This document shows, in pieces, positions 3,574 to 32,000 of a DNA stretch of 32,000 bases. Source of the DNA: Candidatus Methanophagaceae archaeon. GTDB lineage: Archaea; Halobacteriota; Syntropharchaeia; Alkanophagales; Methanospirareceae. A model generated the notes under the pieces. That model was not told the DNA's origin. It made no database searches and was given only the letters and a program-made list of their open reading frames with translations. The stretch covers positions 1,112,728 to 1,144,727 of the forward strand of contig PQXB01000001.1 in NCBI GenBank assembly GCA_003194425.1, given 5' to 3'. Positions within the stretch are counted from its first letter, which is position 1. Every line of letters begins with the position of its first letter. The position numbers were made by a program, and so were the translations under genes.

Positions 3574-4593
3574 ATGAAAGTAGTAAAAGGGGGATATTTT
3601 CCGTATTTGCGTCTCGGCAAAATGAACGAACTCTTGAGGGCAATTCCCTTGCAACTCGTCTCGCAAGTGAACGAGTTCTCCGCCCAGAAGTTAGCCGAAA
3701 CTGTCAAAGTAGGACCGACGACTGCCAGCAACTTTATCGCGACACTGAAATCGCTTGGTTTTGTTAAAGGCAGCAGGAGGTTCAGATTTACCGCAGAGGG
3801 GGACAGTTACGCGATTTTTATAAAAAATCAGGCGGCAGGGGCAGCGGCGGAGGAAGAGGCGAAAAAAGTCTTGCGGCAGCAGGTAGAGAAAATCGAGTAT
3901 CTTCAGGCATTTAAGAAAATGCTCGACGAGAAGCGGCGGCTCACGATTTTTGAAATCGGGGAGCAGATTGTCCTGCGGTACGAGAAGAAATGGAAGAGTC
4001 CGCTGACTTTAAAAACTTACGGTGCGGGCGTTGCGAGCGTTCTCGATTTTGCGGGCTTCGGCTTTTACCGACGCGGTCTCTTAAGTCTCGTGAAGAAAGA
4101 AGTAGAGAGCAGGGCAATGCCTGTCCCTTACCTCAGCGCAGAGAAAATGTTCAAAATTCTAAACCTGCTCTCCCCCTCGGGCGCTGACATTCTCTTTCTC
4201 TCGCAGAACCTCAAGACACAAGAAAGACGGCTGAGTCAGGAGCTGGCGTGCTGCAGGACGCTTGGTTTTGTCAAGCACCCGTCCAGAAATTTTTACGCAC
4301 TGACAAGAGAAGGGAAGGCAATAATTTCGCGGTTCAAGAGCGAGGGCGAACGCAGAGCAGAATTTAGGAGACGACTGCTGGCTTCGCCGTACAAAAGGGG
4401 CGCGACCCAACTGCCGCAGGGCGAGAAAATAACCGTAGAGACGGTCGGTAACCTTTTGGAGACAGTGTACCAGAAGAGGTGGTCGGACTTGACGAAGAAG
4501 ACTTACGCGAAGAAATTCCTGAATTGGCTCAAGTTCGCTGGGATTGTGACGAAACTTGAAGGTGAGAAGGGCTACAAAGTGAGCAGAACCTAA
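3574..4593 (+). CDS. Hypothetical protein with four winged-helix-like modules in A-B-A-B order
   Basis: 339 aa, SD gaggag upstream. A modules end in LGFVK...F..T.EG. B modules carry Y(E/Q)K(K/R)W...T.KTY.....FAG. Each type occurs twice. Confidence 0.6.
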   Translation: MKVVKGGYFPYLRLGKMNELLRAIPLQLVSQVNEFSAQKLAETVKVGPTTASNFIATLKSLGFVKGSRRFRFTAEGDSYAIFIKNQAAGAAAEEEAKKVLRQQVEKIEYLQAFKKMLDEKRRLTIFEIGEQIVLRYEKKWKSPLTLKTYGAGVASVLDFAGFGFYRRGLLSLVKKEVESRAMPVPYLSAEKMFKILNLLSPSGADILFLSQNLKTQERRLSQELACCRTLGFVKHPSRNFYALTREGKAIISRFKSEGERRAEFRRRLLASPYKRGATQLPQGEKITVETVGNLLETVYQKRWSDLTKKTYAKKFLNWLKFAGIVTKLEGEKGYKVSRT

Positions 4594-4637
4594 CCTGAAC
4601 CTAACCTAAACCTAACCTAAACCTAACCTAAACCTAC
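4588..4637. repeat. 11-nt tandem repeat (aacctaaccta, about 4.5 copies)
   Basis: Read directly. It starts in the last codons and stop of the 3574..4593 gene and fills the spacer between two convergent genes. Confidence 0.9.
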
Positions 4638-4660: not shown

Positions 4661-5239
4661 TCAGCAGGGCAGCAATAGTGGTGCTACCACTGCAGCAACA
4701 GCTGCAACCGCGAGCACAGGCACGAGAATCGCGGCGAGCACTGCGAGAATTGCCATTCCTGGAGAGAGTTCGTGCAGTTCCGCGACGCCGTTAATCCCTG
4801 CAAGAAGGGACAAAATCGGTCCGACAAGAATGTTCGGTCCCGGAAGCCAGCCCAAGACCAAGCACGGCGTCGCACCGTAAGTAACCGCTTTTACGGTCTG
4901 CGTTAGTCCCTTTCTACCACCAAACAGGTGCACCCAAATGTGCAGCCAAACCGAAATGTAGAGCGCGAGAAGAACGCCCGCGGCGACTACTGCCACAAAA
5001 ATCCCTGCACCGAGCAGCGGTCCGAGTGCTGCCGTGCTGACTGGAAACGGCATTTCAGGCAGTTCAACCACTGCCGTCGCGATTGAGACCGCTGCTGCCA
5101 CCACGATTCCAAACACTGCACCGAGCGCTGCCAACAGGCTCAAAAAATACTTAAAAGCGTCGCTGAGACTGTCGCCCTTTGCTGCCCCGAACTGTCTCGC
5201 CGGGTTGAACAAAAATCCCCGTATTTTTCCTAATTCCAT
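4661..5239 (-). CDS. Yip1-domain family integral membrane protein
   Basis: 192 aa. N-terminus IRGFLFNPARQF...SLSDAFKYFL followed by about 5 hydrophobic helices, typical of the Yip1/DUF1282 layout. Confidence 0.65.
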   Translation of the reverse strand: MELGKIRGFLFNPARQFGAAKGDSLSDAFKYFLSLLAALGAVFGIVVAAAVSIATAVVELPEMPFPVSTAALGPLLGAGIFVAVVAAGVLLALYISVWLHIWVHLFGGRKGLTQTVKAVTYGATPCLVLGWLPGPNILVGPILSLLAGINGVAELHELSPGMAILAVLAAILVPVLAVAAVAAVVAPLLLPC

Positions 5240-5404: not shown

Positions 5405-5518
5405 ATGGTAGAAAGGGTAGAAACGGTAGAAAAGAAAGAAGACAAAATGGAAGTTGTGTTGAAAAATCAGAGGCACCAGAGACTCAAGGGAAAGGGGGTA
5501 TTTAGGAGGGCAGGTTGA
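5405..5518 (+). CDS. Candidate 37-codon upstream ORF / leader peptide
   Basis: ATG 5405 preceded by gagggaag. Product MVERVETVEKKEDKMEVVLKNQRHQRLKGKGVFRRAG. TGA 5516-5518 lies 1 nt before the cytochrome ATG at 5520. Contains a 9-nt x3 repeat (ggtagaaaN, 5407-5433). Confidence 0.2.
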   Translation: MVERVETVEKKEDKMEVVLKNQRHQRLKGKGVFRRAG

Positions 5519-5519
5519 G

Positions 5520-6152
5520 ATGGAAACGGGCGAGAAGGTAATTATTGGGCTGGTCGTAGTGGTGACCCTCGGGGTCGTCGTTGGCGCTGTCGCTGGTGTC
5601 ACGGTTGTGATGCCGAAGATGATGGAGGAGATGCACAAACCAGAGGCTTGTGCCGAGAACTGTCACGAAATGGTGCCTTACTACGACTCGCTGCAAGAGT
5701 CGGCGCACGAAGGCGTAGATTGCCATGAATGTCACAAGCCCCACGGACCCGAAATCTTTATGGTTATGGGACATGCCCTGCACCACGCGGAAGGTATGGT
5801 AGTGGGAATGACAGAAGGTAAGAGTTCCGAAGAGATTTTTGAGGAGATGGCAGAGGAAATAGAAGAGAAACCGCCCGCGTCGCCGAAGAGGGAAATCTGC
5901 GAGGAATGCCACAAGCCAGGAGGCGGCGAAGGTGAAGTCAGGGCTGCGTCAGAGCAGATTGCAGACCCCAAGATTTCGTGCTTCAAGTGCCACTCTTCAA
6001 TCTTGCACGAGGCACACCCGATTGCAGAATACAGTGCTTACGAAAGCCCGGACTACGGCGAATTCAGCTGTGTCGCCTGCCACAACGACCACGATGTGAA
6101 TGTCAAGGAAGAGACCTGTGGCACTTGCCACCCACCGGAGAAACATCCGTAA
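5520..6152 (+). CDS. Membrane-anchored multihaem cytochrome c, NapC/NirT/NrfH-like N-terminal module
   Basis: 210 aa. N-terminal TM helix, then CAENCHEM...Y..L..SAH..VDCHECHKPH, which resembles the NapC/NirT pattern. Five CXXCH motifs plus one CX3CH. Confidence 0.85.
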   Translation: METGEKVIIGLVVVVTLGVVVGAVAGVTVVMPKMMEEMHKPEACAENCHEMVPYYDSLQESAHEGVDCHECHKPHGPEIFMVMGHALHHAEGMVVGMTEGKSSEEIFEEMAEEIEEKPPASPKREICEECHKPGGGEGEVRAASEQIADPKISCFKCHSSILHEAHPIAEYSAYESPDYGEFSCVACHNDHDVNVKEETCGTCHPPEKHP

Positions 6153-6155
6153 TTT

Positions 6156-8309
6156 TTAATTTAATTTATTTCTCCGGTTTTTATTTTTTCCCTGCTCGGT
6201 TTTTCCCTGCTCGGTTCTGAGCTCGCTGCAGAGCAGAAGAAGCATTCCTACAGACATTAAGAGAACCCCTGCCCAGACGAGCCAAATTAAGGGGACTTTC
6301 TTTACGACGACGACTGCGTCTTTTGGCTGAAGTTTTTCTCCGGCTGCTACGCCTGTAAGAGCGTAGAACATCGCGTCTGAACTGGAGTTTGTGGCGTGCA
6401 TTGAAATGTAGAGGTCTCCTGCGAGGCTGGAAAGAATTAAAGGCTCAGAGACCACGCCGTAGTTTGCGTAGTAAGACATCCACAAGGACTCGGGCTGCTG
6501 GGAGGGGGCAGTCCCTCCACCCTCTCCTCCTTCTCCTCCTTCTCCTCCTTCTCCTCCTTCTCCTCCTTCTCCCTCCTCGCCCCCCGCGTTAACAACAACC
6601 AAATCCAGTTTTAGAGCCGAGTGTTCGGGTCCTGCGAAAGAATGCTTTGGGTAAAAAACGCTTCCTGTGCCTGCGTAGGTCGTGAAATTGTGGAATTCCA
6701 ACCTCGTCCCCAAGACCTCAACAACAGAATCGGGGCTCACGAGAATGTTACCGCTCTCTTCTTCCGCCGCGGAACTGACAAAGACGCCTACTAAAATGAC
6801 GACGACTGCGAGGTGCACGAACGTTTTCCCCCACGCCCTCGTGCTCGTCATTGTGCTCGTCCTCGTGCTCGTCCTCGTGCTCGTCCTCGTGCCCGTGCCC
6901 TTCGTGCCGCTGCGAGAACGAGAAGCGACGGCAACCCCTGCACCGGCAGCGAGGAGCAGCGGAAGTCCGAAGTTCGCGAGTGGGTTCGGCGTTGGCTGCC
7001 CCAACCACGCTAAAACCGCCCCTACGCTCAGCACTGCTCCAAGTAACACCACAAAACTCCTCATTTTCTCCCTGTCCCCTCCCTTGCCACCCCAAGCAGC
7101 GGCGGTGTTGCAGCCCAGCAGAGCCGCGACGAAGGCGAGCGTGAACGGGTAGCACCACTTGTTGTAGAATTCCACGCTCGTGGTCAGTGGGTTCTCGGAG
7201 AAGAAGCCACCGAGAATTGGCGCCGCGTCACCGAGAAAGCAGACGAACAGCAAGAACACGAGCGACCAGAACGCTGCAAAAACCGAGACCGAGTAGAGCG
7301 AAGAAGTGTCGAGGTCAAAATTGTAGAGCGGTCGGTTCGCCCTCGCAGCGAGGTAGAAAAAGTAGAGAACGACGCAGAAGCCAAAGCCCAGCAGCACGGG
7401 TTCGACTGGCGACTCTCCAAACGCGTGCACCGACTCTAACAACCCCCCCCGTGTCAGCGCAGTAGCGAAAATAATCATAAAAAAAGTAGCCAGGAGCAGT
7501 AGTTCTCTCCCCAAATCCTTCCTCCCCGCAGGCAAGTGAAAATACGCAGTGAGAGCGAGCCAGGGCAGCAAAGAAGCCGTCTCCACAGGGTCCCAAGCCC
7601 AGTACCCGCCCCACCCCAGCACTTCGTAAGACCACCACCCGCCGAGAGCGATTCCGAGCGTCAGAAACAGCCACGCCGCGTAAAGAGAAATTTTCAGCGT
7701 CCTTCTTTCCGCCCCCTCTGCCCCTCCTCCTGCTCCCCCTGCTTCCCCTTTTTTCATCCCCGCGAGCGTCAGTGCGAACGCGAAGAAGACAAACGCGTAG
7801 CCCAGAAAAACGACCGGTGGGTGAACGAGCACCCAAAAAGTCTGCAACAGCGGGTTTAACCCCGCTCCTTCTGGCGGTGTAAAAGGCAGAATCTCGAACG
7901 GGCTCTTCAGTAGAACGAGGAGGACCAGAAAAATTAGGAAACTGTCCAAGATTTTGTAAGAAGTTGCACGGTTCTCTGCCCCTGCTCCTACCCTTCTAAA
8001 CCTGTACGCGAAATAAAGCAGGGCAAAGACGAACGCCACAAAGAGCATTGACCCGCTGCTACCGATCCAGGGGTCGCCGAGTTTGTACTGAACCGCCAAG
8101 CTTGAGGAACTGTAGGCGTAAACTTCGCTCAACCAGAAACTGTCCGTCACGAACGCAGTCGTGAGCCTGAAGTAGGACGCAACAATTAGCACGCAAGCCA
8201 GAAAAAAGAGTTCCTGCTTCGTTCTCTCTCTCGCCCTCAAGAAGAGCAGAGCAAAATCAGCCAACAGCAAAACACAAGCCAAAATTAGAAAAAAATCACC
8301 TGTTTCCAT
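6156..8309 (-). CDS. ccmF: Cytochrome c-type biogenesis protein CcmF (haem lyase)
   Basis: 717 aa polytopic protein. WWD motif WGGYWAWDPVE, conserved His contexts VLVHPP, AYFH and LLESVHAF. Carries low-complexity insertions. Confidence 0.9.
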   Translation of the reverse strand: METGDFFLILACVLLLADFALLFLRARERTKQELFFLACVLIVASYFRLTTAFVTDSFWLSEVYAYSSSSLAVQYKLGDPWIGSSGSMLFVAFVFALLYFAYRFRRVGAGAENRATSYKILDSFLIFLVLLVLLKSPFEILPFTPPEGAGLNPLLQTFWVLVHPPVVFLGYAFVFFAFALTLAGMKKGEAGGAGGGAEGAERRTLKISLYAAWLFLTLGIALGGWWSYEVLGWGGYWAWDPVETASLLPWLALTAYFHLPAGRKDLGRELLLLATFFMIIFATALTRGGLLESVHAFGESPVEPVLLGFGFCVVLYFFYLAARANRPLYNFDLDTSSLYSVSVFAAFWSLVFLLFVCFLGDAAPILGGFFSENPLTTSVEFYNKWCYPFTLAFVAALLGCNTAAAWGGKGGDREKMRSFVVLLGAVLSVGAVLAWLGQPTPNPLANFGLPLLLAAGAGVAVASRSRSGTKGTGTRTSTRTSTRTSTMTSTRAWGKTFVHLAVVVILVGVFVSSAAEEESGNILVSPDSVVEVLGTRLEFHNFTTYAGTGSVFYPKHSFAGPEHSALKLDLVVVNAGGEEGEGGEGGEGGEGGEGGEGGGTAPSQQPESLWMSYYANYGVVSEPLILSSLAGDLYISMHATNSSSDAMFYALTGVAAGEKLQPKDAVVVVKKVPLIWLVWAGVLLMSVGMLLLLCSELRTEQGKTEQGKNKNRRNKLN
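6186..6215. repeat. 15-nt x2 tandem repeat in the ccmF 3' end (encodes TEQGK TEQGK)
   Basis: ttttccctgctcggt occurs twice in tandem. Confidence 0.85.
6524..6572. repeat. 9-nt tandem repeat (ctcctcctt x5+) in ccmF, encodes (GEG)n
   Basis: Read directly. In frame on the minus strand. Confidence 0.9.
6841..6900. repeat. 12-nt tandem repeat (gtgctcgtcctc, 3 perfect and 2 variant copies) in ccmF, encodes (TRTS)n
   Basis: Read directly. In frame on the minus strand. Confidence 0.9.
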
Positions 8310-8312
8310 TTT

Positions 8313-8804
8313 TTATTTTTCGTTCCCCTCGTTCCCCAATTCCCAAATCACGACCTGTGCAGCACTCGCTAACACCCCTCCTCTTTCGTCCACCACCCGC
8401 ACGACAACCTTCACTGCGTCCCCCTTTTTCGGCTCCCTGCCCCGGTCAAAACCGAGCACAAAGTCGTAAGTCCCACTCCCCTTGAACTTCTCTGTCGCCC
8501 AGTAACTAACGCCCCCTGCTCCCGAATTAATTATCGCTTTTGCGTCCACGCTTGGAAACCCCGCGGAACTGCCTTTTGGACTTTCTAACGGGCTGACCGT
8601 GTCCTGTTCTACGCTAACGATTTCAACTGCCACTCCGCTCTCTCCTCCCTGTCCTGCTTCTCCCCCGTCAGTCGAGGAAACCTCTACCTTTGCCTGTAAT
8701 TTTACGACCGGGACCTCTTCCAAACTTACGCAGCCACTCGCGAAAATCAGACCAAAAACTGCAGCCGTAACACCGAGAAACGCAAAAATATTTTTATTTT
8801 TCAT
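8313..8804 (-). CDS. Putative lipoprotein of unknown function
   Basis: MKNKNIFAFLGVTAAVFGLIFASGC is a signal peptide plus lipobox. Beta-rich C-terminus. Its stop lies 3 nt from the ccmF start. Alternative in-frame starts at 8816 and 8858; the 8858 ATG overlaps the upstream cytochrome stop as ATGA. Confidence 0.6.
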   Translation of the reverse strand: MKNKNIFAFLGVTAAVFGLIFASGCVSLEEVPVVKLQAKVEVSSTDGGEAGQGGESGVAVEIVSVEQDTVSPLESPKGSSAGFPSVDAKAIINSGAGGVSYWATEKFKGSGTYDFVLGFDRGREPKKGDAVKVVVRVVDERGGVLASAAQVVIWELGNEGNEK

Positions 8805-8816
8805 CCGCTCTCTCAT

Positions 8817-8852
8817 TCTCCTTCCCCCGCTCCTTCTCCTTCCCCCGCTCCT
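8817..8852. repeat. 18-nt x2 tandem repeat (tctccttcccccgctcct)
   Basis: Lies between the cytochrome stop and the lipoprotein signal peptide. It would encode RRSGGR x2 if the 8858 start is used. Confidence 0.85.
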
Positions 8853-8854
8853 TC

Positions 8855-9754
8855 TCATTCTCCTTCCCCTTCCCCTTCCACTTCTACTTCCCCTTCTCCC
8901 TCTCCCTTGCCCGTCAAAATGCAAGCCTTCAGCGACTTCAAAATGTTCAAAATCGTGGGATATTTCTCCTCCTCTTCCCGCCCAACCCTCGCAGGCACAA
9001 GCACACCTTCTTTCATTTTGTAGCCTTCCTCTTTGTATTTTAGCCCAAACGAGCCGTGGCAGGCGACGCACAAACTCCCTATCTTGTCGCCGTGAATTGA
9101 GTGAGCGTCTCCGAGGTGGCAGGAGTTGCAGTTGGCTGTCTTCGGAATTGTTGGCTTCTTCTCTTTCTCTCCGCCGTGGCACGCCTGGCATTTCACACTC
9201 AAATGGACACGGTGGATTTCGTCGCACGGAATCTCCGCTCCCGCTCCTGCACTCTCGTCGGCAGTCCCGGCAGTCCCGGCAGCCCCGGCTACTGTCCCAC
9301 TTCCGATGTGACAGTCAACGCAGGTCTTCTCGCCGTGTGCAAGCCTTCTGATTTTTTCTCTGTCCACCGCCCCTCCTGTAGTGTAGTCTTTGTCGTGGCA
9401 CTTGCAAGACCCGAGTTTTGACTGCAACGCCTTCTCTGAGAGGAGCGAGACGTGGCACTGCCCGCATTCAGGCACAGGGTGCCACGAGCCGATAAAATTT
9501 TTTGAATTTGGCGGAATTACCTCTTGCACTCCCTCGTTTGCGGTCTCGCCTTTCTCTGTTTCTGCCCCTGCTCCTGCTCCTGCCCCTGCTCCTGCTCCTG
9601 CTCCTGCCCCTGCTCCTGCCCCTGCTCCTACCCCCGTTCCTGCACCTGTTTCTCCTGCACCTGTACCCGTGCTAGTACAGGCACAGAGGGACGCGGCGGC
9701 TGCTGCTGCGACGACTACAGCCGTGACGAAGAACGCAAGGATTTTGATTTTCAT
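8855..9754 (-). CDS. Multihaem cytochrome c, lipobox-bearing, with Gly/Ala tether
   Basis: The listed ORF was trimmed to the ATG at 9754 (MKIKILAFFVTAVVVAAAAAASLCAC). Five CXXCH motifs (CGQCH, CVDCH, CQACH, CNSCH, CVACH) plus one CKCH. Poly-GA linker and (GE)n tail. Confidence 0.8.
   Translation of the reverse strand: MKIKILAFFVTAVVVAAAAAASLCACTSTGTGAGETGAGTGVGAGAGAGAGAGAGAGAGAGAGAETEKGETANEGVQEVIPPNSKNFIGSWHPVPECGQCHVSLLSEKALQSKLGSCKCHDKDYTTGGAVDREKIRRLAHGEKTCVDCHIGSGTVAGAAGTAGTADESAGAGAEIPCDEIHRVHLSVKCQACHGGEKEKKPTIPKTANCNSCHLGDAHSIHGDKIGSLCVACHGSFGLKYKEEGYKMKEGVLVPARVGREEEEKYPTILNILKSLKACILTGKGEGEGEVEVEGEGEGE
9564..9629. repeat. Hexanucleotide repeat (tgctcc/tgcccc) encoding poly(Gly-Ala)
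   Basis: Read directly. In frame in the cytochrome linker. Confidence 0.9.
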
Positions 9755-9885: not shown

Positions 9886-11259
9886 ATGAAGGGACTGGGA
9901 AGAGGCGTGTTAGTGGTCTTAACGCTGTTAGTGTTTTTCTTCTTTTCCGCTGCTGCCACACCCTCTCCCAGTGCCACTCTCTCTCCCACTGCTGCCACTC
10001 CCACTGCCACTGCTGCCACACCCTCTCCCACTGCTACTGCTACTGTTACGGGAACGATGCCGAAAGCGGTGGTTGTCTCTGATGTTCGGGGCTTGAACGA
10101 CTACGAAGTTGGGGAGAACTGTTTCACCCACGGAAACACGCTCAAAGTCTACACCGAACTGCAAGGAGTGAATTACGACGGTTTCGTTGTTGTGGATTTC
10201 TTCTTTATCATCGAAGACCCGCTTGGAAATGTCGTCGGGTTAGACCACGAGGAAGTAAGTCGCAGGAATTACGACCGCAACGTCTTTGTGGTCTACACAA
10301 AAACAATTCCTTCGTGGTGGAAGTACGGCAGGTACAAACTTCATATTTACGCCTACGACTGCTTGGACAAGGCGAAGATAAACGATTTAGAGCAGAGTCT
10401 GCTGGCTACTGTAGGTGTGTCAAAGTTGTTTGACGACGAGGATTATTTTGAAGACTTGGAAGACCTTTTTGGGGACGTCTGCGGAGGCGACAGGGACGAC
10501 CTTGAGGACTTGGACGTGATAAAAAAGTTCTCAAACTCGGTAGAAGAAATAACAACCCTAGAGTTCTTCGTGCGCAGCGAGGAGGAGCTAAAAGAGGCGA
10601 GTGAGGAGGGGGAAGGGGAAGAGGGAGAAGAAGGTGCAGCGGCGCTGCTGCGGTTCCCAAAAATTGAAGGCACTAATTTTGTGGTGTCTGGTGTGGTGCT
10701 CGACAAATTTAAGGTGCAGCCTGACGAGCCCGTTTCAATCTCGGTTACCGTAAAGAACGCGGGAACGAAGGGAACAGAACGGGTCAGGCTGGAAATAAAC
10801 GGTAAAAAAGAGGCTGAAGAATCTGTTACTTTGGACTACTTGGAATCCCGAACGCTCGTCTTTCAGGTGAAGAAGAGCCTCCCCGGGACCTACAAAACGA
10901 CCATTTCTGGCACCGAAATCGTGAAAATGTTCTTCGTTGAAGAACCGCGAGAATCTGTGAGCCCCCAGCGAGAGAGCGAGGAGGGAAAGGGTCTAACTTC
11001 TGAAACAGAGGGAGAGGAAGGGGGACAGGGAGGAGAGGTGGGGGAGGTGAGAGAGGAGGGAGAGGAGGGAGAGGGAGGAGAAGGAGGAGCTAAAAAGGAA
11101 AAAGTATCTTTTAAAAAATATCTTCTTGTCGGTGCTTTTATTGCAATTCTTGTGGTGGTCTTACTGCTTTTACGGTCACCCAGCATAAATCGGCTGCGTC
11201 TCGTTGCAATTCTCTTAATAATTCTGCCGCTCATTTTCATTCTTTTAAAGCTTGAATAA
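9886..11259 (+). CDS. Secreted, membrane-anchored surface protein with a CARDB-like domain
   Basis: 457 aa, SD aggagtga. Signal peptide, T/P/S/A-rich linker, CARDB-like segment VSISVTVKNAGTKGTERVRLEINGK, acidic GE-rich linker and C-terminal hydrophobic helices. Confidence 0.7.
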   Translation: MKGLGRGVLVVLTLLVFFFFSAAATPSPSATLSPTAATPTATAATPSPTATATVTGTMPKAVVVSDVRGLNDYEVGENCFTHGNTLKVYTELQGVNYDGFVVVDFFFIIEDPLGNVVGLDHEEVSRRNYDRNVFVVYTKTIPSWWKYGRYKLHIYAYDCLDKAKINDLEQSLLATVGVSKLFDDEDYFEDLEDLFGDVCGGDRDDLEDLDVIKKFSNSVEEITTLEFFVRSEEELKEASEEGEGEEGEEGAAALLRFPKIEGTNFVVSGVVLDKFKVQPDEPVSISVTVKNAGTKGTERVRLEINGKKEAEESVTLDYLESRTLVFQVKKSLPGTYKTTISGTEIVKMFFVEEPRESVSPQRESEEGKGLTSETEGEEGGQGGEVGEVREEGEEGEGGEGGAKKEKVSFKKYLLVGAFIAILVVVLLLLRSPSINRLRLVAILLIILPLIFILLKLE

Positions 11260-11273
11260 AAGTAGGTGAAAAT

Positions 11274-12335
11274 ATGAAAACAGGAGAGGGAGAAAAAGAG
11301 AAAGAAAGTAGCGTAAAGATTGTCCCTATCGGAATCAAGGTCGGGTCTCAAAATACCGTGATTACGACAAGCGATTGGACGGAGATTGAGACTACTTGCG
11401 TGAAAGAGCGGTCGAACCTAATAACAGGCGAGACCGAGTATATTGTCGGGAACGAGGCTGCGGAAATGTTCGGCGACGGAGCGGAATATATGTTGCGCGG
11501 TGGTCTTCCGGGCAACGAGGAAGAAGCAGACCTTTTACGGCGGTTCCTCGGTCGGCTCATCGAGAAATATGACTTGCCCGAAAATAGTTATGTAACTTAC
11601 GCAATTCCCGCCGTCGAGAGCGAGGTCGGAATAAACCTCTTCAAAAAAGTCGTCAGCCAAATTTCCATCGGCTGGAGCGGTAAAGAGATTTGGAACGATT
11701 CCTTTCTCGGCGCTTTGGCTCTTCCCGGCGGCATCGAAATCGTAGAAAAGACTTTTCTGGTGATAAACCTGGGCTCAACGACTACCGAAGTAGTCGCTGC
11801 TCGGAAGGGCGAGGTTCTCTTGAGCGCGGTAACAGGGGCGGTAAGCGGCGATTTGGTGGACAGGTGGGTAAAAAATGAAATCCTGAACGAGACGCGGGCA
11901 GCACTCAACATTGACCTCGCAACAGCACGGAAATACAAGGAGAAATACGCAAACCTGAAGTCGTGGGAGAACGTTCAGGAGTCGGTTCAACTCTTCAGGA
12001 AAGGGAAATCCAGCTTCAAGATCAGCGAGTGCATAATTAAGCCGATTGAAGATTATTTAGAGCGGCTCGCCGATTTCGTCTGCCTTGAGTTCCTTCCTGA
12101 ACTCGCAGAAACGAATTTCTCGGTCTACAAGCAGGTTCTTGCGAAGGAGTTCATTTTGGTCGGCGGAATGGTTGAAATTCCTGGACTGCGGGAGAAACTT
12201 GGGACAATTATGAGCAGCCAACTTGGAGCGAATGTCACGATGATTTGCCCCGAGAACCCTGTTGCGGCACCTGCGAAAGGGGCGTACACGCTTTCAAAAT
12301 ACCGGACAACGACAACGCAGGAGCAGGAAAAATGA
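11274..12335 (+). CDS. Actin/MreB/Hsp70-fold (ASKHA) protein, divergent
   Basis: 353 aa, SD aggtga 4 nt upstream. Motifs in order: phosphate-1 IGIKVGSQNT, phosphate-2 LVINLGSTTTEV, SGDLVD, adenosine ILVGGMVEIPGLREKL, connect-2 ENPVAAPAKGA. Confidence 0.7.
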   Translation: MKTGEGEKEKESSVKIVPIGIKVGSQNTVITTSDWTEIETTCVKERSNLITGETEYIVGNEAAEMFGDGAEYMLRGGLPGNEEEADLLRRFLGRLIEKYDLPENSYVTYAIPAVESEVGINLFKKVVSQISIGWSGKEIWNDSFLGALALPGGIEIVEKTFLVINLGSTTTEVVAARKGEVLLSAVTGAVSGDLVDRWVKNEILNETRAALNIDLATARKYKEKYANLKSWENVQESVQLFRKGKSSFKISECIIKPIEDYLERLADFVCLEFLPELAETNFSVYKQVLAKEFILVGGMVEIPGLREKLGTIMSSQLGANVTMICPENPVAAPAKGAYTLSKYRTTTTQEQEK

Positions 12336-12967
12336 GGTGGAACAGGTTAGCAAACATTGAGGAACGGTTGGAGAAATGGGACTCTCTCTTTCAGGAATTG
12401 AGCGTCTTTGCCAACGAGTTTATTCCAAATTTGCAGAGTTCTTACGAGGTTTTGAGCAGAAAAGTAGAAAAATTAGAGCGAGATTTAGTGGCAAGTGCAG
12501 AGGAGAAAAGAGAGTGGCAGGAGCAGGCGGTGGAGCAGGCGGTGGAGCAGTCGGTGGAGCAGGTGCTGGAGCAGGCGCTGGAGCAGGCGCAAGGAGAGAG
12601 GCAAGGGCAGGGGCAGGAAGAGTTACTCAACGAATTTGGCGAACTTAAGGAGAAAACAGCAGGCGAAGTCAGGGCTCTTAAACTGAAACTTGAAGCACTC
12701 GAGAACCAAGTGAGTTTCAAGAACTTGGAGAGAAGTGTGAGAGGTGCGAGCGGTGAAGAAGGAGAAAGAGGCAGCGTAGAAGGGCTGCAGGAGCTGCAGG
12801 AGATTAAAGCAACTCTCGGCGAAGTAAGCGAAATGGTTCAGAAGAACACGGACTCGATTGCAAAACTCGCAGCAGAAGTTCAGAACCTCTCTTCCACCCC
12901 TTCCACTGCAACGAGAAGAGTTGCTGTTCGGAAAGAAGGAAAGGTGAAATCTCCACGAATACTGTGA
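12332..12967 (+). CDS. Coiled-coil protein
   Basis: Its ATG at 12332 overlaps the upstream TGA (ATGA). Heptad-like E/K/L/Q-rich sequence. Contains the (EQAV)-type repeat. Confidence 0.7.
   Translation: MRWNRLANIEERLEKWDSLFQELSVFANEFIPNLQSSYEVLSRKVEKLERDLVASAEEKREWQEQAVEQAVEQSVEQVLEQALEQAQGERQGQGQEELLNEFGELKEKTAGEVRALKLKLEALENQVSFKNLERSVRGASGEEGERGSVEGLQELQEIKATLGEVSEMVQKNTDSIAKLAAEVQNLSSTPSTATRRVAVRKEGKVKSPRIL
12521..12592. repeat. 12-nt x6 tandem repeat (gagcaggcggtg and variants)
   Basis: Encodes EQAVEQAVEQSVEQVLEQALEQAQ in frame. Confidence 0.9.
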
Positions 12968-14859: not shown

Positions 14860-17124
14860 GACTTTGTAGCCCGGTATTTTTTGCGGTCCCCTGTATTCTG
14901 TAGCCTTGGCAAGCTCCTTTAGGCATTCCGGGTTCTGTGCGGTGGTCATATCTCCGAGTGCTTCGTTCCGAACGAGACCCTTTAGAAATCGCCTTATTAT
15001 TTTCCCGCTCTCGGTCTTCGGCAGATCAGAAACATAGTAAGCGACCTCCGGAGTCGCCACCGGCCCCACCTTCTCCCGCACTGCCTTCACTATTTTCCTG
15101 TCCATTTCCGCTTTCTCTTTTTTATCTTTAAGCACGACGAAAAGAGCAGGCACCTCGCCTTTTATCGCGTTCGGCTTCCCGACAACTGCGACCTCCGCAA
15201 CCTCCTCCAAGCTACTTACCGCCTCCTCTACCTCGGCAGTGCCGAGCCTGTGCCCCGCGACTTCCATAACATCGTCAATCCTGCCAGTAATTTTTATCAG
15301 CGGCTGACCTCCGATTTCCCGCCCGATTTTTACTCCACCGTCACCCGCGAAATAAATCTCCGCACCGTATTCACTCCAGTATTCTCCCAAATATTTCGCG
15401 GGATTTTTGTAAATCCCCCTGAGCATAGAAGGAGCGTAAGGCGGTTTTACAACGAGGTACCCGGATTCTCCGACCTTCACCGGCTCTCCTGTCGCGTCCA
15501 AGACATCAAAACGCACTCCCGGCAGTGCAGGACCCGCAACGCCCGGAACGAACGGTCCTACGCCGGGAAGCGAGGACAAGAGAATTCCGCCGGTCTCGGT
15601 CTGCCAGTAAGTGTCCACCAAAGGACAGCGACGCTCTCCGATTTTCTCGAAAAACCACCGCCAAGTGTCAGGGTCGATTGGCTCGCCGACCGACGCCAAA
15701 AGTCGCAAGGACGAGAAGTCCCGCCCCGCGACCCATTTCTCGCCCGCGGCTCTTAACGCTCGCACTGCCGTCGGGGCGGTGTAAAAAACGGTTACTGCAT
15801 TTTCCTCAATTATTTTCCACCACCTGCTCGGGTTCGGGTAGTCCGGCGCACCCTCGTACCACAAAGTCGTCGCTCCAGCGAGCAACGGACCGTAAAGAGC
15901 GTAAGAATGCCCCGTTATCCAGCCAATGTCCGCGGTTGTCCAGAACAAGTCGGTGGGGTGCAGGTCGAAAACGAGTTTCATCGTCAACGCCACGCCAACG
16001 CTGTACGCCCCGCAGGAGTGCATTACCGCCTTCGGCTTGCCCGTCGTCCCAGAAGTGTAGAGCAGGAACGAAATGTCGTCAGAAGTGAGCGTCTCTGGGT
16101 CGCAGTAAGAAAAAGGCGTGTTTTTCATCAGTTCGTCGTAAAAGTAGTCTCTCCCTTCTTTCATCGCAACCTCGCCCTCGCCCTCTCCCTCGCCCTCGCC
16201 GCTGTCCTCTCCCTCGCCGCTGTCCTCTCCCTTTCCTTCACGCCCCTCGCGGTTCAGTCGCCGAACAACCACGCAACACTCTGCACCAACTTTCTCCAAA
16301 ACCGCACCCTCGTCAATCCGGTTTTTCAATTCTATCTTTTTCCCTCTTCGGTAGAAACCGTCTGCGGTGACAAGAATTTTGGAGCCCGCGTCTTCCATTC
16401 GCTCCCTAACCGCGTGAGGTGCAAATGCGGTGTAAACGATTGAGTGCAGCGCCCCAATTCGCTGGCAGGCTAAAGCGACCACTGCAGTCTCGGGAATCAT
16501 CGGCATCCAAACCGTCACGGGGCTTCCTTTCTTCACTCCGAGCCCCTTCAAAACATTTGCAAACTTGTTCACCTCCCTGTACAAGTCCAAGTAAGTCAAG
16601 ACCCTCTGTGGTTCGTTTTCGGGCTCAGGCACCCACAGAATCGCTGCCTCGTTCCGCCGCTCCTCCAAATGCCGGTCAAGGCAGTTGTAGGACAGGTTCG
16701 TCTTGCCACCCACGAACCACTTGAAATACGGCGGGTTCAGTTCCACGACCTTTCCTTCCTCTACTTTCTCTCCCTCCTTCCCTTCCTCTACTTTCTCTCC
16801 CTCCTTCCCTTCCTTCCTTTCCTCTCCTTCCTTCCCTTCCTCTACTTTCTCTCCCTCCTTTCCTTCCTTCCCCTCCTTCCTCCCCTCCCACACCTCAAAC
16901 CAGTCGATTAACGCCCTGCCCTGCTCTGCCCAGAAGCCTTCGGGGTCTCTGCTCGCCTCTTCGTAAATCCGCTCGTCGCTGAAGTACGCCTTCTCTTTCA
17001 TCTCCGCCGTCGGCCAGTACACTCTTCTGCTTTCACCGCCGTCCTCCTCCGTCGCTTCTTCCTTCTCCTCCGTCACCCACTGCTTCCCCGACTCCCTCAA
17101 CCTGCCTCCAACATTTACGCCCAT
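14857..17124 (-). CDS. acs: Acetyl-CoA synthetase (AMP-forming)
   Basis: 755 aa. YTSGTTGKPKAV, WQTETGG, PKTESGKIIRR. Two low-complexity insertions. Confidence 0.92.
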   Translation of the reverse strand: MGVNVGGRLRESGKQWVTEEKEEATEEDGGESRRVYWPTAEMKEKAYFSDERIYEEASRDPEGFWAEQGRALIDWFEVWEGRKEGKEGKEGEKVEEGKEGEERKEGKEGEKVEEGKEGEKVEEGKVVELNPPYFKWFVGGKTNLSYNCLDRHLEERRNEAAILWVPEPENEPQRVLTYLDLYREVNKFANVLKGLGVKKGSPVTVWMPMIPETAVVALACQRIGALHSIVYTAFAPHAVRERMEDAGSKILVTADGFYRRGKKIELKNRIDEGAVLEKVGAECCVVVRRLNREGREGKGEDSGEGEDSGEGEGEGEGEVAMKEGRDYFYDELMKNTPFSYCDPETLTSDDISFLLYTSGTTGKPKAVMHSCGAYSVGVALTMKLVFDLHPTDLFWTTADIGWITGHSYALYGPLLAGATTLWYEGAPDYPNPSRWWKIIEENAVTVFYTAPTAVRALRAAGEKWVAGRDFSSLRLLASVGEPIDPDTWRWFFEKIGERRCPLVDTYWQTETGGILLSSLPGVGPFVPGVAGPALPGVRFDVLDATGEPVKVGESGYLVVKPPYAPSMLRGIYKNPAKYLGEYWSEYGAEIYFAGDGGVKIGREIGGQPLIKITGRIDDVMEVAGHRLGTAEVEEAVSSLEEVAEVAVVGKPNAIKGEVPALFVVLKDKKEKAEMDRKIVKAVREKVGPVATPEVAYYVSDLPKTESGKIIRRFLKGLVRNEALGDMTTAQNPECLKELAKATEYRGPQKIPGYKV
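16171..16230. repeat. GE/DSGEGE-encoding repeat in acs, including an 18-nt x2 unit
   Basis: ctcgccgctgtcctctcc at 16195-16212 and again at 16213-16230. Confidence 0.85.
16750..16893. repeat. Polypyrimidine (plus strand) repeat tract of about 140 nt in acs
   Basis: Recurring cttcctctactttctctccctcctt. Encodes EGKEGKEGEKVEEGK-type repeats on the minus strand. Confidence 0.85.
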
Positions 17125-18042: not shown

Positions 18043-18936
18043 TTCGTAAGTCTCGCTAACCTCGGGCTGCAGGAAAATCTTCCGAACGAGTTCGTAGTTC
18101 TCCACTAATTCCTCAAGGGCGTGGTGCTGTTGCTTCTGCGTTTGTTGCTTCTGCGTTTGTTGCTTCTGCGTTTGCTTCTGCGTTTTCACGAGTTTCAAGG
18201 CTCTCTTGACACCGACGCCTTTAACGCCGGGGTTGAAGTCGGTGCCGACCAAAATTGCGAGGTCAACGAGCTGCTCACGGGTCAGCCCGAGCCGCTCCTC
18301 GACCGCTCGCAGTTCAACGACCTCGAGCGCTGCCTTTCTTCTCGGTGCGCCAGCTGCGGTGAGATTTCGGACTACAACTGGTGCGCCGAAGAGCAGCGAG
18401 TCGTAGTCCTGCGAGGAGACGAGTTCGGCGTCGCCCCGCTGAACCAAGAAAGCCGCCTGAGCCTCGCCCTCTCCGGCTGCCTGCACGCAGGGGACGCCGA
18501 GGTAGGTTAAAAGCCTCTTCGCGTCCTCAACGACCGCTGCGTCTACTTTCGCGGACGCCTGGGCGTACTTGAAGGATTTCTCTGGCTCTTCAGGAAAGAG
18601 AACCTTCGCCTCCTCCCACTTCCGCAACGCCTCCGCTCTCCGCTCCGCCCTCGCTTTAAGAACCTCCGCCTTCAACTCCGACGGCTTGCCGTCAAAGACG
18701 AAGACGAGTTTTAACCCCTTCGCCACGAGGTGGGTAGTGCGGTAAATCAGGCCCGAGAGGTGCGAGGTCGTTCTGCCTGCGGAGTCGGTGAGTGGCGTTC
18801 CGTCGGGCTGCCGAATCGTGCTCAGGAATTGGTAGAGCGTGTTCTGTGCGTCGACCGCGACTACTCTGCCCGTGAGTGCTTCCAAGCTCGTCGGTCTTGA
18901 CCCTGCTCTAATTATTTCGCCAATCTTTGCCCCCAT
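17893..18936 (-). CDS. fen: Flap endonuclease 1
   Basis: The listed ORF was trimmed to the ATG at 18936. MGAKIGEII...VAVDAQNTLYQFLSTIRQPDGTPLTDSAGRTTSHLSGL...VFVFDGKP. Insertion TQKQTQKQQTQKQQTQKQQ. Confidence 0.9.
   Translation of the reverse strand: MGAKIGEIIRAGSRPTSLEALTGRVVAVDAQNTLYQFLSTIRQPDGTPLTDSAGRTTSHLSGLIYRTTHLVAKGLKLVFVFDGKPSELKAEVLKARAERRAEALRKWEEAKVLFPEEPEKSFKYAQASAKVDAAVVEDAKRLLTYLGVPCVQAAGEGEAQAAFLVQRGDAELVSSQDYDSLLFGAPVVVRNLTAAGAPRRKAALEVVELRAVEERLGLTREQLVDLAILVGTDFNPGVKGVGVKRALKLVKTQKQTQKQQTQKQQTQKQQHHALEELVENYELVRKIFLQPEVSETYELNWGAVEAERVKEFLCEEHDFSVERVSKVLEKISQTARQTRQKRIEQWF
18129..18186. repeat. 15-nt tandem repeat (gttgcttctgcgttt, 3 copies plus a partial) in fen
   Basis: Read directly, in frame on the minus strand. 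Confidence 0.9.
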
Positions 18937-21423: not shown

Positions 21424-22133
21424 TTTCCTAAACCTCTAACAACGAACAAAACGCCCAAGACAACCAAAAAGACCGCGACAACGAGCATTGCCAACTCGTA
21501 CCTCCTGCCGACAAAGAAATTCCTTCCCCTCGCGAAAGAGACGGAGACGAATGAGTACCACGCAAAATCTGAGAGAAAATGCCCAAAAACTACTAAAACA
21601 ATTCCCTTCAGTGCGAGCCACTTAAACCCGCTCAAGAGCACCGGGTAGCCCACTGCAAACCACCACGGAAGAAAAGAAGGGTTTAGAGCAGTAAGCAGGA
21701 AACCCCCGAAAATTGTACTGTTGTACTTCCTCTCCCCCTCCCGCTCTCTCTCCTTCTCCCACTCTCTCTCATTCTCCCGCTCCTTTTCTCGCACCTTGCT
21801 CGCTCTTGACCTTGCCTCCCGTGACTCTTTAACAACAAAGAAAGACATCAAAATAAGTGCAACGCCGCCCAGCAAGAAAATCCAGCGTTCAAACTGTCCG
21901 AAATATTTCTCCAACTCAAGCCCCAAAACTACAAGCCCCACAATCAGCGGTAACTCAACCGAGAAGTGCCCAATCATTGTAAGCGGTCCTGAGAGCGCTC
22001 CCTTCTCCCCTTTCTTCAGCGTCTCCGAGACGACAAAAGCAAAGAGCGGTCCCGGAATTAACGCCCCGCTCAGTCCTGTCAGAAATCCTACGCCTACCAG
22101 AGACGCCCCGATGACGAGTGCCGAAGGTGTCAT
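21420..22133 (-). CDS. LysE/RhtB-type translocator family membrane protein
   Basis: Trimmed to the ATG at 22133 (MTPSALVIGASLVGVGFLTGLSGALIPGPLFAFV). The central loop carries an ER-rich insertion (about nt 21725-21800). Confidence 0.6.
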   Translation of the reverse strand: MTPSALVIGASLVGVGFLTGLSGALIPGPLFAFVVSETLKKGEKGALSGPLTMIGHFSVELPLIVGLVVLGLELEKYFGQFERWIFLLGGVALILMSFFVVKESREARSRASKVREKERENEREWEKEREREGERKYNSTIFGGFLLTALNPSFLPWWFAVGYPVLLSGFKWLALKGIVLVVFGHFLSDFAWYSFVSVSFARGRNFFVGRRYELAMLVVAVFLVVLGVLFVVRGLGK

Positions 22134-27540: not shown

Positions 27541-28887
27541 CTATTTCTCCTCCCCTCCCCTTTTCCGCACAGCACCTAACCTACCACTCAACCAACCGGC
27601 TAATTCCCTCGCTTCTACTTCCAAACGCTCCTCAAAAACGATAAAGCAGGGGTTTACCAACACCGCAGCGATCCAGCAGAAAAAAATTCCCAAAGCCAGC
27701 GACTGCCCCAGGTGCTGAATCATCGGCATCACAGAGAGCGTCAAAGCGAGGAAAGCCGCAATCGTAGTCGCAGCAGAGCCGAATGTCGACGCTCCAATAT
27801 TTGTAACTGCAACTCGCAACGCTTCCCTCGAACTCTTCCCCGCCTTTCCTTCCTTTCCCTCCTTCCTCTCTTTTCCCTCCTCCCCAGTCTTCCCCGCCTT
27901 TCCTTCCTTTCCCTCCTTCTCTTCCTTCCTCTCCTTCTCCTCCTTCCTCTCCTCTCCCGTCTTCCCCTCCTTACCCCACCGCTCTTCATAGTACCGCGAG
28001 ACCATAAAAATCCCGTATTCAACGCCCAGACCGATGATGACCGCGCCGATCATAACCGTGCTGATGGAGATTGGAATGCCGAGGAAACCCATCGTCCCGA
28101 AGGTCCAGGTAATTCCAAAAATCAGTGGCAGGAAGACGAGAAAGCCCTTTGAGAACGACCGCTCAAGCAGAGCCAGCAGCCCGAAAATAATCGCCGCCGC
28201 CACCGCAGTCGTGAATTTCATATCCTCCCGCATTAACCTCAAGAGCTCAATTATCAGCGGCGCCACGCCCGTTATTTTATACTTCACGCCTGCAGGCTTC
28301 GTAATCGCGTCAACATCGTTCTGTATCATTTCTGTCACCGCCCTAACCTTCTCCTCGCTTAAGCCTGCCAGCGGGCTGACATAAACCAGCATAATGCTGA
28401 AGTCGTCGTTAAAAAAGCTCTCTGCACCCGAACCCGAAGCAGAGGCTAACCGCTTTTTCACCCCTTCTAAATCCGGCGGAACGCCGCCCTCGCCCTGAAA
28501 AAGTGGTGCAACCGACACAACCTTTTCAATTGAAGATTCCGCCTCAAGCCGCTCGTGCAGTTCAACCACCGACGCCACTACCCTCGGGTCTCTGATGTCG
28601 TGCGGGAGGTCTTTTGCTCCTGTTTCGCGATCCAAGCAGACAGCAACAACCAAATACTCCTCGCCTCTGAACTCACTCGCTATTTTATCCTGCAGAACGA
28701 AGACCGGCAAGTCCTGTGGCATCTCCTTCTCTAAGTCTCCCTGAAACCGCAGTTCTGTCGCCCCGTAGCCTAAAAAGACCGTTAGAACCAGCGTCGCCAC
28801 AATCACCTTCTTGTAGTGCCGGCACTGAAACGCAGCCAACTTTGTCAAGCCTCGCTCCAAACTTATCTTCTCTCTTAACCTTGACAT
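27541..28887 (-). CDS. MMPL/RND-superfamily exporter, N-terminal half
   Basis: 448 aa with the same half-transporter topology. GLGVEYGIFMVSRYYEE, followed by a K/E/G-rich insertion. Confidence 0.75.
   Translation of the reverse strand: MSRLREKISLERGLTKLAAFQCRHYKKVIVATLVLTVFLGYGATELRFQGDLEKEMPQDLPVFVLQDKIASEFRGEEYLVVAVCLDRETGAKDLPHDIRDPRVVASVVELHERLEAESSIEKVVSVAPLFQGEGGVPPDLEGVKKRLASASGSGAESFFNDDFSIMLVYVSPLAGLSEEKVRAVTEMIQNDVDAITKPAGVKYKITGVAPLIIELLRLMREDMKFTTAVAAAIIFGLLALLERSFSKGFLVFLPLIFGITWTFGTMGFLGIPISISTVMIGAVIIGLGVEYGIFMVSRYYEERWGKEGKTGEERKEEKERKEEKEGKEGKAGKTGEEGKERKEGKEGKAGKSSREALRVAVTNIGASTFGSAATTIAAFLALTLSVMPMIQHLGQSLALGIFFCWIAAVLVNPCFIVFEERLEVEARELAGWLSGRLGAVRKRGGEEK
27834..27975. 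repeat. Polypyrimidine (plus strand) repeat tract with a 54-nt periodicity
   Basis: tcttccccgcctttccttcctttccctccttc starts at 27834 and again at 27888. Encodes GKEGKAGKTGEE-type repeats. Confidence 0.85.
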
Positions 28888-30867: not shown

Positions 30868-32000
30868 ATGAAAAGAGCAAAGAACACGCAACTTGCACAA
30901 GCACTTGCACAAGCACTTGCACAAGCACTTGCACCTACGCCTACGGTTCTACACCCTGCACCCGCGCTTCTGCCTCTGGTTGCGTTGCACGGCTTAATGC
31001 ACATTTTGGCGACGACGCTGCCTGCACTCTCGCCGTTGGTGAAGCAGGAGTTTTGTCTGACGAACACCGCGGTGGGCGTGCTCTCGTTTGCGTTCGCGGC
31101 TGCGATTGGGTTGGGGAGCGTCTTTTCTGGGCTGCTCTCGGACAGGTTTGACGGACTAAGGCTGGTGAGTCTGGGCTTATTCTTTGCCGCCGTTCTCTCT
31201 GCTCTGCTCTTCGTTTCACACGATTTTCTCTCGCTTACCCTCATTTTTGTCGTTATGGGATTCTGCCTCAGTCTTTACCACCCCTCTTCTCTCTCTTACA
31301 TCGCGAAATCCGTAAAGACCAGACGAGGCAGAGCCTTTGGCGTGCACGAGACAGGAGCGAGCCTGGGGCTTGCAGTAACGCCGTTAGTGGCGGGCTTGGT
31401 CTGTCTTTACGCGGGCTGGCGGTTCGTTTACTTGTTTTGGGCGTTTCCCACCGCCTTCTTCGCAATTCTGCTCCTCTCACTCTCACGCTCTCACTCACTC
31501 TCTCACTCACGCTCACTCTCTCACTCTCACTCACTCTCTCACTCTCACTCACTCTCACTCTCACACAACCACAAGCCGACGGAGGAGGGAGGAAGAACAA
31601 AATTAACGGTTTTCCTTCGGCAAATTGCAAGCACGGGCTCGCTGCGGAGGATTTACTTAATTGAGGGGTTGTTTGGGTTTGTCGTGGGCGGGTCGCTGAC
31701 TTTCATTCCGATTTTCTTTAACGAGGCGCTGGGGGTGAGCCCCGCGCTTGCGGTGGTGCTGACCTGCGTCTTTACAGCAGGCGGAGCGGTCGGGAAATTT
31801 GCAGGTGGGCATTTCTCGGACCTCGTGGGCGAGCGGCGGGTGATGGCTTTTGGCTTTTTCCTGACCGCTCCGTTCTTCTTCGTCGTGCCGTTCCTGCCGC
31901 TGTTCGGGGCGGTTCTGGCGTTGGCACTCGCGGGCTTGATTTTCCCGACCGTTCTGCCTGCGATAATTTCAAGGATAAGCAAGGAAGTCCCGCGGTCGAG
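30868..32000 (+). CDS. MFS transporter (3' end beyond the window)
   Basis: Absent from the ORF track because there is no stop in the window. I translated the frame by hand and it stays open from ATG 30868 to 32000. MFS motif A GLLSDRFDGLRLV. Repeats AQALAQALAQALA and SHSLSHS... are present. Confidence 0.8.
   Translation, partial: MKRAKNTQLAQALAQALAQALAPTPTVLHPAPALLPLVALHGLMHILATTLPALSPLVKQEFCLTNTAVGVLSFAFAAAIGLGSVFSGLLSDRFDGLRLVSLGLFFAAVLSALLFVSHDFLSLTLIFVVMGFCLSLYHPSSLSYIAKSVKTRRGRAFGVHETGASLGLAVTPLVAGLVCLYAGWRFVYLFWAFPTAFFAILLLSLSRSHSLSHSRSLSHSHSLSHSHSLSLSHNHKPTEEGGRTKLTVFLRQIASTGSLRRIYLIEGLFGFVVGGSLTFIPIFFNEALGVSPALAVVLTCVFTAGGAVGKFAGGHFSDLVGERRVMAFGFFLTAPFFFVVPFLPLFGAVLALALAGLIFPTVLPAIISRISKEVPRS
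30891..30934. repeat. 12-nt tandem repeat (acttgcacaagc, 3 copies plus a partial) in the MFS 5' end
   Basis: Read directly, in frame. Confidence 0.9.
31474..31565. repeat. ctcactctc-type microsatellite of about 90 nt in the MFS central loop
   Basis: Encodes SLSRSHSLSHSRSLSHSHSLSHSHSLSLSH in frame. Confidence 0.9.

Follow-up and report, generated by a model that had tools for sequence, protein, structure and literature searches.

A conserved ANME-1 gene cluster combining an NrfH-like cytochrome, a CcmF haem lyase and a small multihaem cytochrome with unusual candidate haem motifs

We analysed a stretch of 32,000 nucleotides of DNA from a Candidatus Methanophagaceae archaeon (assembly GCA_003194425.1, contig PQXB01000001.1, positions 1,112,728 to 1,144,727), hereafter called the window and numbered from its first letter, in which the open reading frame (ORF) listing and Pfam searches reveal a cluster of four cytochrome c-related genes. 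The cluster comprises a gene for an NrfH/NapC/NirT-family membrane-anchored cytochrome c of 210 residues on the plus strand (5520-6152) and, on the minus strand, genes for the System I haem lyase CcmF (6156-8309, 717 residues), a small anchored protein with an immunoglobulin (Ig)-like domain (8313-8804, 163 residues) and a small multihaem cytochrome (MHC) resembling cytochromes c3 and c7 (8855-9754, 299 residues). The stop codons of the NrfH-like gene and ccmF converge with 3 nucleotides between them (6153-6155), and another 3 nucleotides separate the stop codon of the Ig-like gene from the start of ccmF. An earlier note on this DNA, made from the letters alone, had recognised the anchored cytochrome on the plus strand, its 3-nucleotide distance from the end of a minus-strand operon and the grouping of CcmF with a multihaem and a small protein in that operon, and all of these are borne out by the ORF listing and by matches to PF03264, PF01578 and PF16327. 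The Pfam matches of the two cytochromes and CcmF pass the curated gathering thresholds, which are the Pfam cut-offs cited. The start that the note assigned to the NrfH-like gene, at 5405, was misplaced: counted from the preceding stop, the earliest start codon lies at 5520, and 5405 falls in an upstream non-coding repeat. Within the 32 kb, no ORF other than those of the NrfH-like protein and the MHC has two or more CXXCH motifs, and a Pfam search of window ORFs of at least 120 residues found no gene resembling ccmA, ccmB, ccmC or ccmE, as the note had stated. Related loci (L numbers below) were gathered via CcmF homologues and compared with the window proteins by tblastn and blastp, and a second set of contexts (L082-L087) was chosen independently from NrfH-like homologues.

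The NrfH homologue matches PF03264 with 48.7 bits (cut-off 24.1, E 9e-13), its residues 10-165 covering profile positions 7-171 of 174. When 17 homologues were combined into a profile and searched against the PDB, NrfH of D. vulgaris was matched (2j7a_C, E 1.4e-5), and hhalign aligned the two with a probability of 92%, pairing haem sites 1-4 one-to-one with NrfH haems 1-4. Its single hydrophobic segment (residues 2-35, with none elsewhere) aligns to the NrfH helix, and the requirements of the Ccm system suggest that the haem domain lies outside the cytoplasm. NrfH and CymA are established menaquinol dehydrogenases, and in the NrfH structure the methionine of the CXXCHXM motif ligates the quinol-site haem. 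The homologue has six haem sites, one CX3CH and five CXXCH. The CX3CH motif is the first, C44-AEN-C48-H49-E-M51 (5649-5672, plus strand), in which C44, C48, H49, E50 and M51 are invariant in the 17 homologues; CAENCHEM aligns to CTSCHIM of NrfH with one residue more between the cysteines. As judged from this alignment, CX3CHEM is the counterpart of the quinol-site haem 1 motif of NrfH, and one paralogue carries CXXCHEM in its place. The protein thus resembles NrfH of D. vulgaris (PDB 2J7A/2VR0), NapC, NirT and CymA in its single N-terminal transmembrane helix, and NrfH in the order of four haem motifs and in the X-Met that follows haem 1. It differs from NrfH in having CX3CH instead of CXXCH at haem 1, two additional C-terminal haems and a helical insert (~25 residues) between haem 2 and haem 3, in an alignment gap at the Lys82 region, in having no NrfA partner, and in its archaeal host. 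Its C-terminal part resembles small tetrahaem or c7 cytochromes. Pfam scans and locus annotation found no NrfA-like gene in the window or the related loci; the automatic annotation of the Joint Genome Institute (JGI) labels some homologues 'cytochrome c nitrite reductase small subunit'. A second, shorter family of NrfH-like paralogues (~157-165 residues, five haem sites, ~35% identity) also carries CX3CHEM, and its genes are again convergent with ccmF or the gene of a Yip1-domain protein (L021 1694-6820; L007 13356-13853; L013 and L016).

The small cytochrome matches PF14522 with 33.4 bits (cut-off 24.8) and PF02085 with 27.3 bits (cut-off 22.9), and contains five CXXCH motifs and one CXCH, C117-K-C119-H120 (9395-9406, minus strand), a candidate sixth, non-canonical haem site. 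We found 40 homologues, and all those with a taxon name are from ANME-1, a group of anaerobic methanotrophic archaea (ANME), from Methanosarcinales or from a subsurface metagenome. The five CXXCH motifs and C117-x-C119-H120 are invariant in alignments of 31 and of 39 sequences reaching down to 38% identity, as are exactly 12 histidines, 6 of them in the motifs and 6 elsewhere. This number would fit six bis-histidine haems, and the CXCH motif may be read as a putative haem-binding site. In a weak alignment to cytochrome c3 (1w7o), the CXCH takes the place of the CX4CH haem-2 site. Among the scanned ORFs of the related loci, CXCH was limited to this cytochrome family, save for one ORF of L022 that has no CXXCH. 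We know of no described natural c-type haem site with CXCH spacing, and a literature search found no paper describing one. The MHC is comparable to the tetrahaem cytochromes c3 and to c7 in its PF02085 and PF14522 matches and in the spacing of its first three sites, which align with those of 1w7o, but has six sites, with CXCH replacing the CX4CH of c3 haem 2, and is in addition anchored at its hydrophobic N-terminus and carries a conserved amphipathic helix at its C-terminus. Orthologues of ~215 residues share this hydrophobic N-terminus and helix (YPTIxNILKAL). No PDB sequence match of the MHC to OmcS, OmcE, OmcZ or the archaeal extracellular cytochrome nanowire (ECN) filament cytochromes was found.

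CcmF is recognised by PF01578 (104.7 bits) and PF16327 (47.3 bits) and matches Thermus CcmF 6zmq with E 8.6e-40. The WWD motif WGGYWAWDPVE (7581-7613) is identical in Thermus CcmF, and the four functional histidines, two periplasmic and two transmembrane, are kept (VHPP, SVHAF, AYFH and FVHLA). With 196.8 bits against TIGR00353, below the cut-off of 569, and with low-complexity repeat insertions that enlarge it at 6515-6577 and 6837-6896, the protein is a divergent archaeal member of its family with repeat insertions. An exact look-up retrieved no identical record for the window CcmF. Relatives at 53-63% identity lie on 22 contigs from metagenome-assembled genomes of the ANME-1/Methanophagales type, some of them labelled Methanosarcinales, Halobacteriota, Methanomicrobia or Syntrophoarchaeum, and the next matches are bacterial at ~30% identity. 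Each ANME-1 genome yielded a single full-length CcmF of this kind, the exception being a tandem duplicate in L021, and the CcmF of the cluster is probably the general lyase in these genomes too. CcmABCEF is present in most ANME, including cytochrome-bearing ANME-1, while CcmH is missing in most ANME, and CcmF paralogues tied to particular ANME cytochromes have been described (PMC9012536). The present arrangement is similar to those of CcmF2 beside ANME MHC-B and of NrfE in NrfEFG, where the gene of a CcmF-family lyase likewise adjoins those of cytochromes whose motifs are unusual. In the present cluster the neighbouring cytochromes are small (~200 residues), whereas those of CcmF2 are giant S-layer cytochromes, and the CcmF here seems to be the main genome copy, unlike the dedicated lyases CcmF2 and NrfE.

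The third minus-strand protein is anchored at its N-terminus and consists of one Ig-like beta domain. It has no Pfam or NCBIfam match; an exhaustive search found 42 representative relatives where a word-indexed search had found only 3, and several of these relatives sit inside giant proteins built of Big_12, cadherin-like or He_PIG Ig repeats. In 12 of the loci selected through CcmF, and likewise in L081-L084 and L086, its gene is placed between those of the MHC and CcmF. A docking or scaffold role is plausible for the protein. A role as substitute for CcmE or CcmH was considered and rejected, as it lacks HxxxY/CxxxY and CXXC motifs and its orthologues have no conserved cysteine or histidine.

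The earlier note had described this protein as an unknown lipoprotein and the MHC as a lipoprotein on a long, flexible Gly/Ala tether. The lipobox-like cysteines are present in the window, in ASGC of the Ig-like protein (8730-8741) and SLCAC of the MHC, and the smaller protein, which has no family match, is best regarded as a single anchored Ig-like domain. A lipobox cysteine is found in roughly one in four of the aligned MHC sequences and in 2 of 12 Ig-like orthologues; in most orthologues of both proteins the N-terminus is instead a plain hydrophobic stretch serving as anchor or signal. On this distribution we regard the lipobox cysteines as real in this strain, but not as part of the conserved design. 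The same holds for the tether. The MHC is multihaem, and its linker exists here, as 42 Gly/Ala/Thr-rich residues (27-68; 9551-9676, minus strand) encoded by a hexanucleotide tandem repeat, within which Tandem Repeats Finder (TRF) detects an in-frame array with a period of 6/12 (9562-9648). All orthologues except P0047 (97-98% identical) lack it, and its length differs by 9-nucleotide and 3-nucleotide changes from that in the 99%-identical metagenomic contig L081. We therefore read the linker as a lineage quirk of the strain, outside the conserved design, because orthologues do without it, it originates from a repeat array and its length varies between 99%-identical strains.

The gene order itself is widely conserved. 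On the side of the NrfH-like gene, the cluster is flanked by the divergent gene of a polytopic Yip1-domain membrane protein with four hydrophobic segments (4661-5239, minus strand; PF04893, 36.1 bits, cut-off 28.6), and on the MHC side by the divergent gene of a secreted protein of 457 residues that has a CARDB-like domain and is anchored in the membrane by one or more segments at its C-terminus (9886-11259, plus strand). The latter has hydrophobic segments at both termini and no Pfam match in the window; its L007 orthologue gives a weak CARDB match. The order Yip1 / NrfH-like / CcmF-Ig-like-MHC / surface protein recurs in ~20 ANME-1 contigs at 50-67% identity. It is complete from the surface protein to Yip1 in L001, L003, L005, L007, L008, L009 and L019 and partial in L002, L004, L010, L014, L017 and L020, where L014 is the G60 genome. 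The MHC-Ig-like-CcmF genes converge with the NrfH-like gene in L001, L003, L005, L007, L008, L009, L014, L017 and L019. The independently chosen contexts L082-L087 have the same order, with MHC-Ig-like-CcmF facing the NrfH-like gene in L082-L084 and L086. In L013, L016 and L021 the convergent CcmF/NrfH-like pair is kept without MHC genes. The Yip1 gene adjoins the NrfH-like gene in L001, L003, L005, L007, L008, L009, L019, L020 and L082-L087, and the gene of the 457-residue protein keeps its place beside the cluster across the ANME-1 loci. Beyond the cluster, the flanks of the related loci consist of unrelated housekeeping genes. Chance juxtaposition of the genes was rejected, as their synteny is conserved across loci. 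In L021, two CcmF/NrfH-like pairs stand in tandem, the second CcmF appearing split or frameshifted, and in L086 two unannotated genes (123 and 311 residues; 7104-8407) between the NrfH-like gene and ccmF break the tight pair. In the membrane, the Yip1 protein may act as a partner to the NrfH homologue.

In four loci (L007, L082, L083 and L084) the cluster continues into genes for c7-type cytochromes, an S26 signal peptidase and an unannotated membrane protein. This extension spans 2739-7598 in L007, 12883-16579 in L082 and 13017-16618 in L084, and its membrane protein has ~260-280 residues. An ANME-1 cytochrome c cluster with a signal peptidase and an unannotated membrane protein has been reported (Meyerdierks 2010, as cited in Chadwick 2022, PMC9012536). 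That block directly adjoins the present genes in the same four loci, and the papers examined mention neither the NrfH homology nor the CX3CHEM and CXCH motifs. By its gene order, the cluster is a conserved module and the core of a larger ANME-1 neighbourhood of cytochrome and maturation genes. Near-identical proteins (97-99%) have been deposited under the names 'ANME-1 cluster archaeon ex4572_4' and 'Methanomicrobia archaeon ENG23'. The host is thus an ANME-1 (Methanophagales) archaeon close to ex4572_4 and not of the Ferroglobus/Geoglobus type that the earlier note also considered, the closest relatives of its CcmF being those of ANME-1.

From these relationships we consider it reasonably probable that the cluster is an entry module through which menaquinol delivers electrons to cytochrome c on their way out of the cell, encoded beside its haem lyase. 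Menaquinol would be oxidised by the NrfH homologue at haem 1, the one nearest the membrane (CX3CHEM, with the methionine as in NrfH), and the electrons would travel through the further haems of this protein to the small cytochrome associated with the outer side of the membrane. This cytochrome would feed the extracellular cytochrome network and, through it, the sulfate-reducing partner. CcmF would be encoded alongside because it attaches haem to both cytochromes, including the two non-standard motifs. The general idea of the earlier note, a layout of quinol-oxidising inner module, outward cytochrome and lyase, survives in this proposal without its tether and lipoprotein parts. ANME-1 are predicted to use menaquinone, based on Fqo and the futalosine pathway, and have neither Mco nor any cytochrome b, with no other quinol:cytochrome c oxidoreductase cluster identified in them (PMC9012536). 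NrfH and CymA are described as menaquinol dehydrogenases (PMC3340143). We found no paper in the open literature linking ANME-1 to NrfH, NapC or CymA homologues.

Several findings weigh against this proposal. The NrfH model TIGR03153 aligns end to end, but its score of 46.1 bits is under the NCBIfam equivalog cut-off of 134.2. Lys82 of NrfH and Lys91 of CymA, near haem 1, are important for quinol binding, and the NrfH segment 'LLAKLPFKAIAG', which holds Lys82, falls in a gap of the alignment, near which the homologue has an invariant E78 and H89. As this segment has no counterpart in the alignments, the quinol site appears only partly conserved. The cluster contains no gene for a partner reductase or a large membrane subunit. 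The AlphaFold2 models of the NrfH homologue (17 sequences; predicted local distance difference test, pLDDT, 51) and of the MHC (39-sequence alignment; pLDDT 47) are too poor for a fold search. Finally, the position of ccmF may reflect shared inheritance instead of a specific functional link, because CcmF appears to be the general lyase. The fuller claim, that the NrfH homologue is the ANME-1 menaquinol:cytochrome c oxidoreductase and, in addition, that its partner carries a natural covalent haem at CXCH, matured by CcmF without CcmH, is tentative, and we hold it to be possible but doubtful.

Other explanations of the cluster are less well supported than menaquinol oxidation. Dedicated lyases are known in NrfE (for CXXCK) and CcsA1 (for CX15CH), and CcmF could likewise be kept beside two special substrates with CX3CH and CXCH motifs that a general lyase cannot handle. 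Both flanking cytochromes do have an invariant non-CXXCH motif, the CXCH among the scanned ORFs is confined to this one family apart from the single ORF in L022, and ANME CcmF paralogues tied to particular cytochromes are known (PMC9012536). With one such full-length CcmF per ANME-1 genome, save in L021, the enzyme is nevertheless probably the general lyase as well, and by this comparison of loci we regard a purely dedicated function as unlikely. The ordinary E. coli Ccm system reportedly matures both CX3CH and CX4CH (work of Allen et al. from 2009).

Alternatively, the genes may constitute a biogenesis cluster, in which the MHC and the Ig-like protein are haem-attachment accessories, for example for the CcmH and CcmG functions that archaea lack, and the NrfH-like protein supplies electrons from quinol that keep haem or the apocytochrome cysteines reduced. 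Such a function would agree with the tight coupling of the Ig-like gene and ccmF across 3 nucleotides, with the retention of the CcmF/NrfH-like pair where MHC genes are missing, with the absence of CcmH from most ANME (PMC9012536) and with the S26 signal peptidase and membrane protein, thought to act in cytochrome maturation, that adjoin the cluster elsewhere in ANME-1. We nonetheless find it quite unlikely: the Ig-like protein, having no conserved cysteine or histidine, cannot perform chemistry on thiols or haem, a thioredoxin-like CXXC protein is lacking, a cytochrome with six haems would be unusual as a maturation factor, and CcmF has its own b-haem histidines for haem reduction. Very unlikely, in our view, is a coupling of quinol or quinone by the NrfH homologue to a periplasm-side reductase (of nitrite, sulfite, polysulfide or metal) or to electron uptake, the gene of the catalytic partner lying outside the cluster. 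Terminal reductases are the usual partners of NrfH and NapC proteins, and the JGI label on the homologues points the same way, but the window and ~20 related loci contain no gene for NrfA, Nap, Tor or another reductase, and what is conserved as partner is a small cytochrome of the electron-transfer kind.

Menaquinol oxidation by the cluster would have functional parallels in other archaea. The decahaem NapC/NirT-family protein GAH_01256 of Geoglobus ahangari is likewise archaeal and has been proposed as a link from quinol to extracellular electron transfer (PMC8280799); by its published description it has ten haems where the present protein has six and belongs to the Archaeoglobi lineage. Mco of ANME-2a/2b/2c, consisting of a VhtC-like cytochrome b and an MHC, has the same proposed role between a membrane carrier and cytochrome c, but its proteins are unrelated to those described here, it uses a cytochrome b subunit and methanophenazine, and it is missing from ANME-1 (PMC9012536). 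A large share of seafloor methane is consumed by ANME-1, which pass the electrons to sulfate-reducing partners. For the transfer of electrons from membrane quinol to the outer cytochromes of ANME-1, a concrete and clonable candidate is now at hand, and tests in Shewanella or E. coli would need no cultivation of ANME. The CX3CHEM and CXCH motifs also bear on the substrate tolerance of an archaeal Ccm system without CcmH, and on haem counts in genome surveys that use CXXCH alone.

The extension with c7-type cytochromes and signal peptidase is missing beside the cluster in the window, where a salactin homologue (11274-12335, plus strand; PF25229, E 1e-92) and housekeeping genes are found instead; salactin is an actin-family protein described from Halobacterium. 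The flanks of the window hold archaeal housekeeping genes, among them those for CdhD, FEN1, PyrI, L1 and geranylgeranyl reductase, and a mobile-element or viral origin was rejected on account of these genes. Rfam and tRNA scans of the window gave no match. Around 20 in-frame tandem-repeat arrays with periods of 6, 9, 12, 18 and 27 lie inside ordinary genes of the window, for example at 6515-6577, 6837-6896, 8810-8905, 9562-9648, 9950-10035, 11007-11089, 12520-12589, 16170-16232, 16749-16889, 18128-18185, 21730-21782, 27822-27972 and 31474-31564. They add runs of Gly/Ala, Gly/Glu or Thr/Arg/Ser to proteins such as FEN1 (450 residues), acetyl-CoA synthetase (755 residues) and CcmF (717 residues). 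All five insertions or deletions relative to the 99%-identical contig L081 fall in tandem-repeat arrays, so that the arrays behave like microsatellites that are hypervariable within coding sequence. Between a helix-turn-helix (HTH)-domain gene and the Yip1 gene there is an intergenic AACCT/AACCTAACCTA repeat of ~9 copies (4587-4636).

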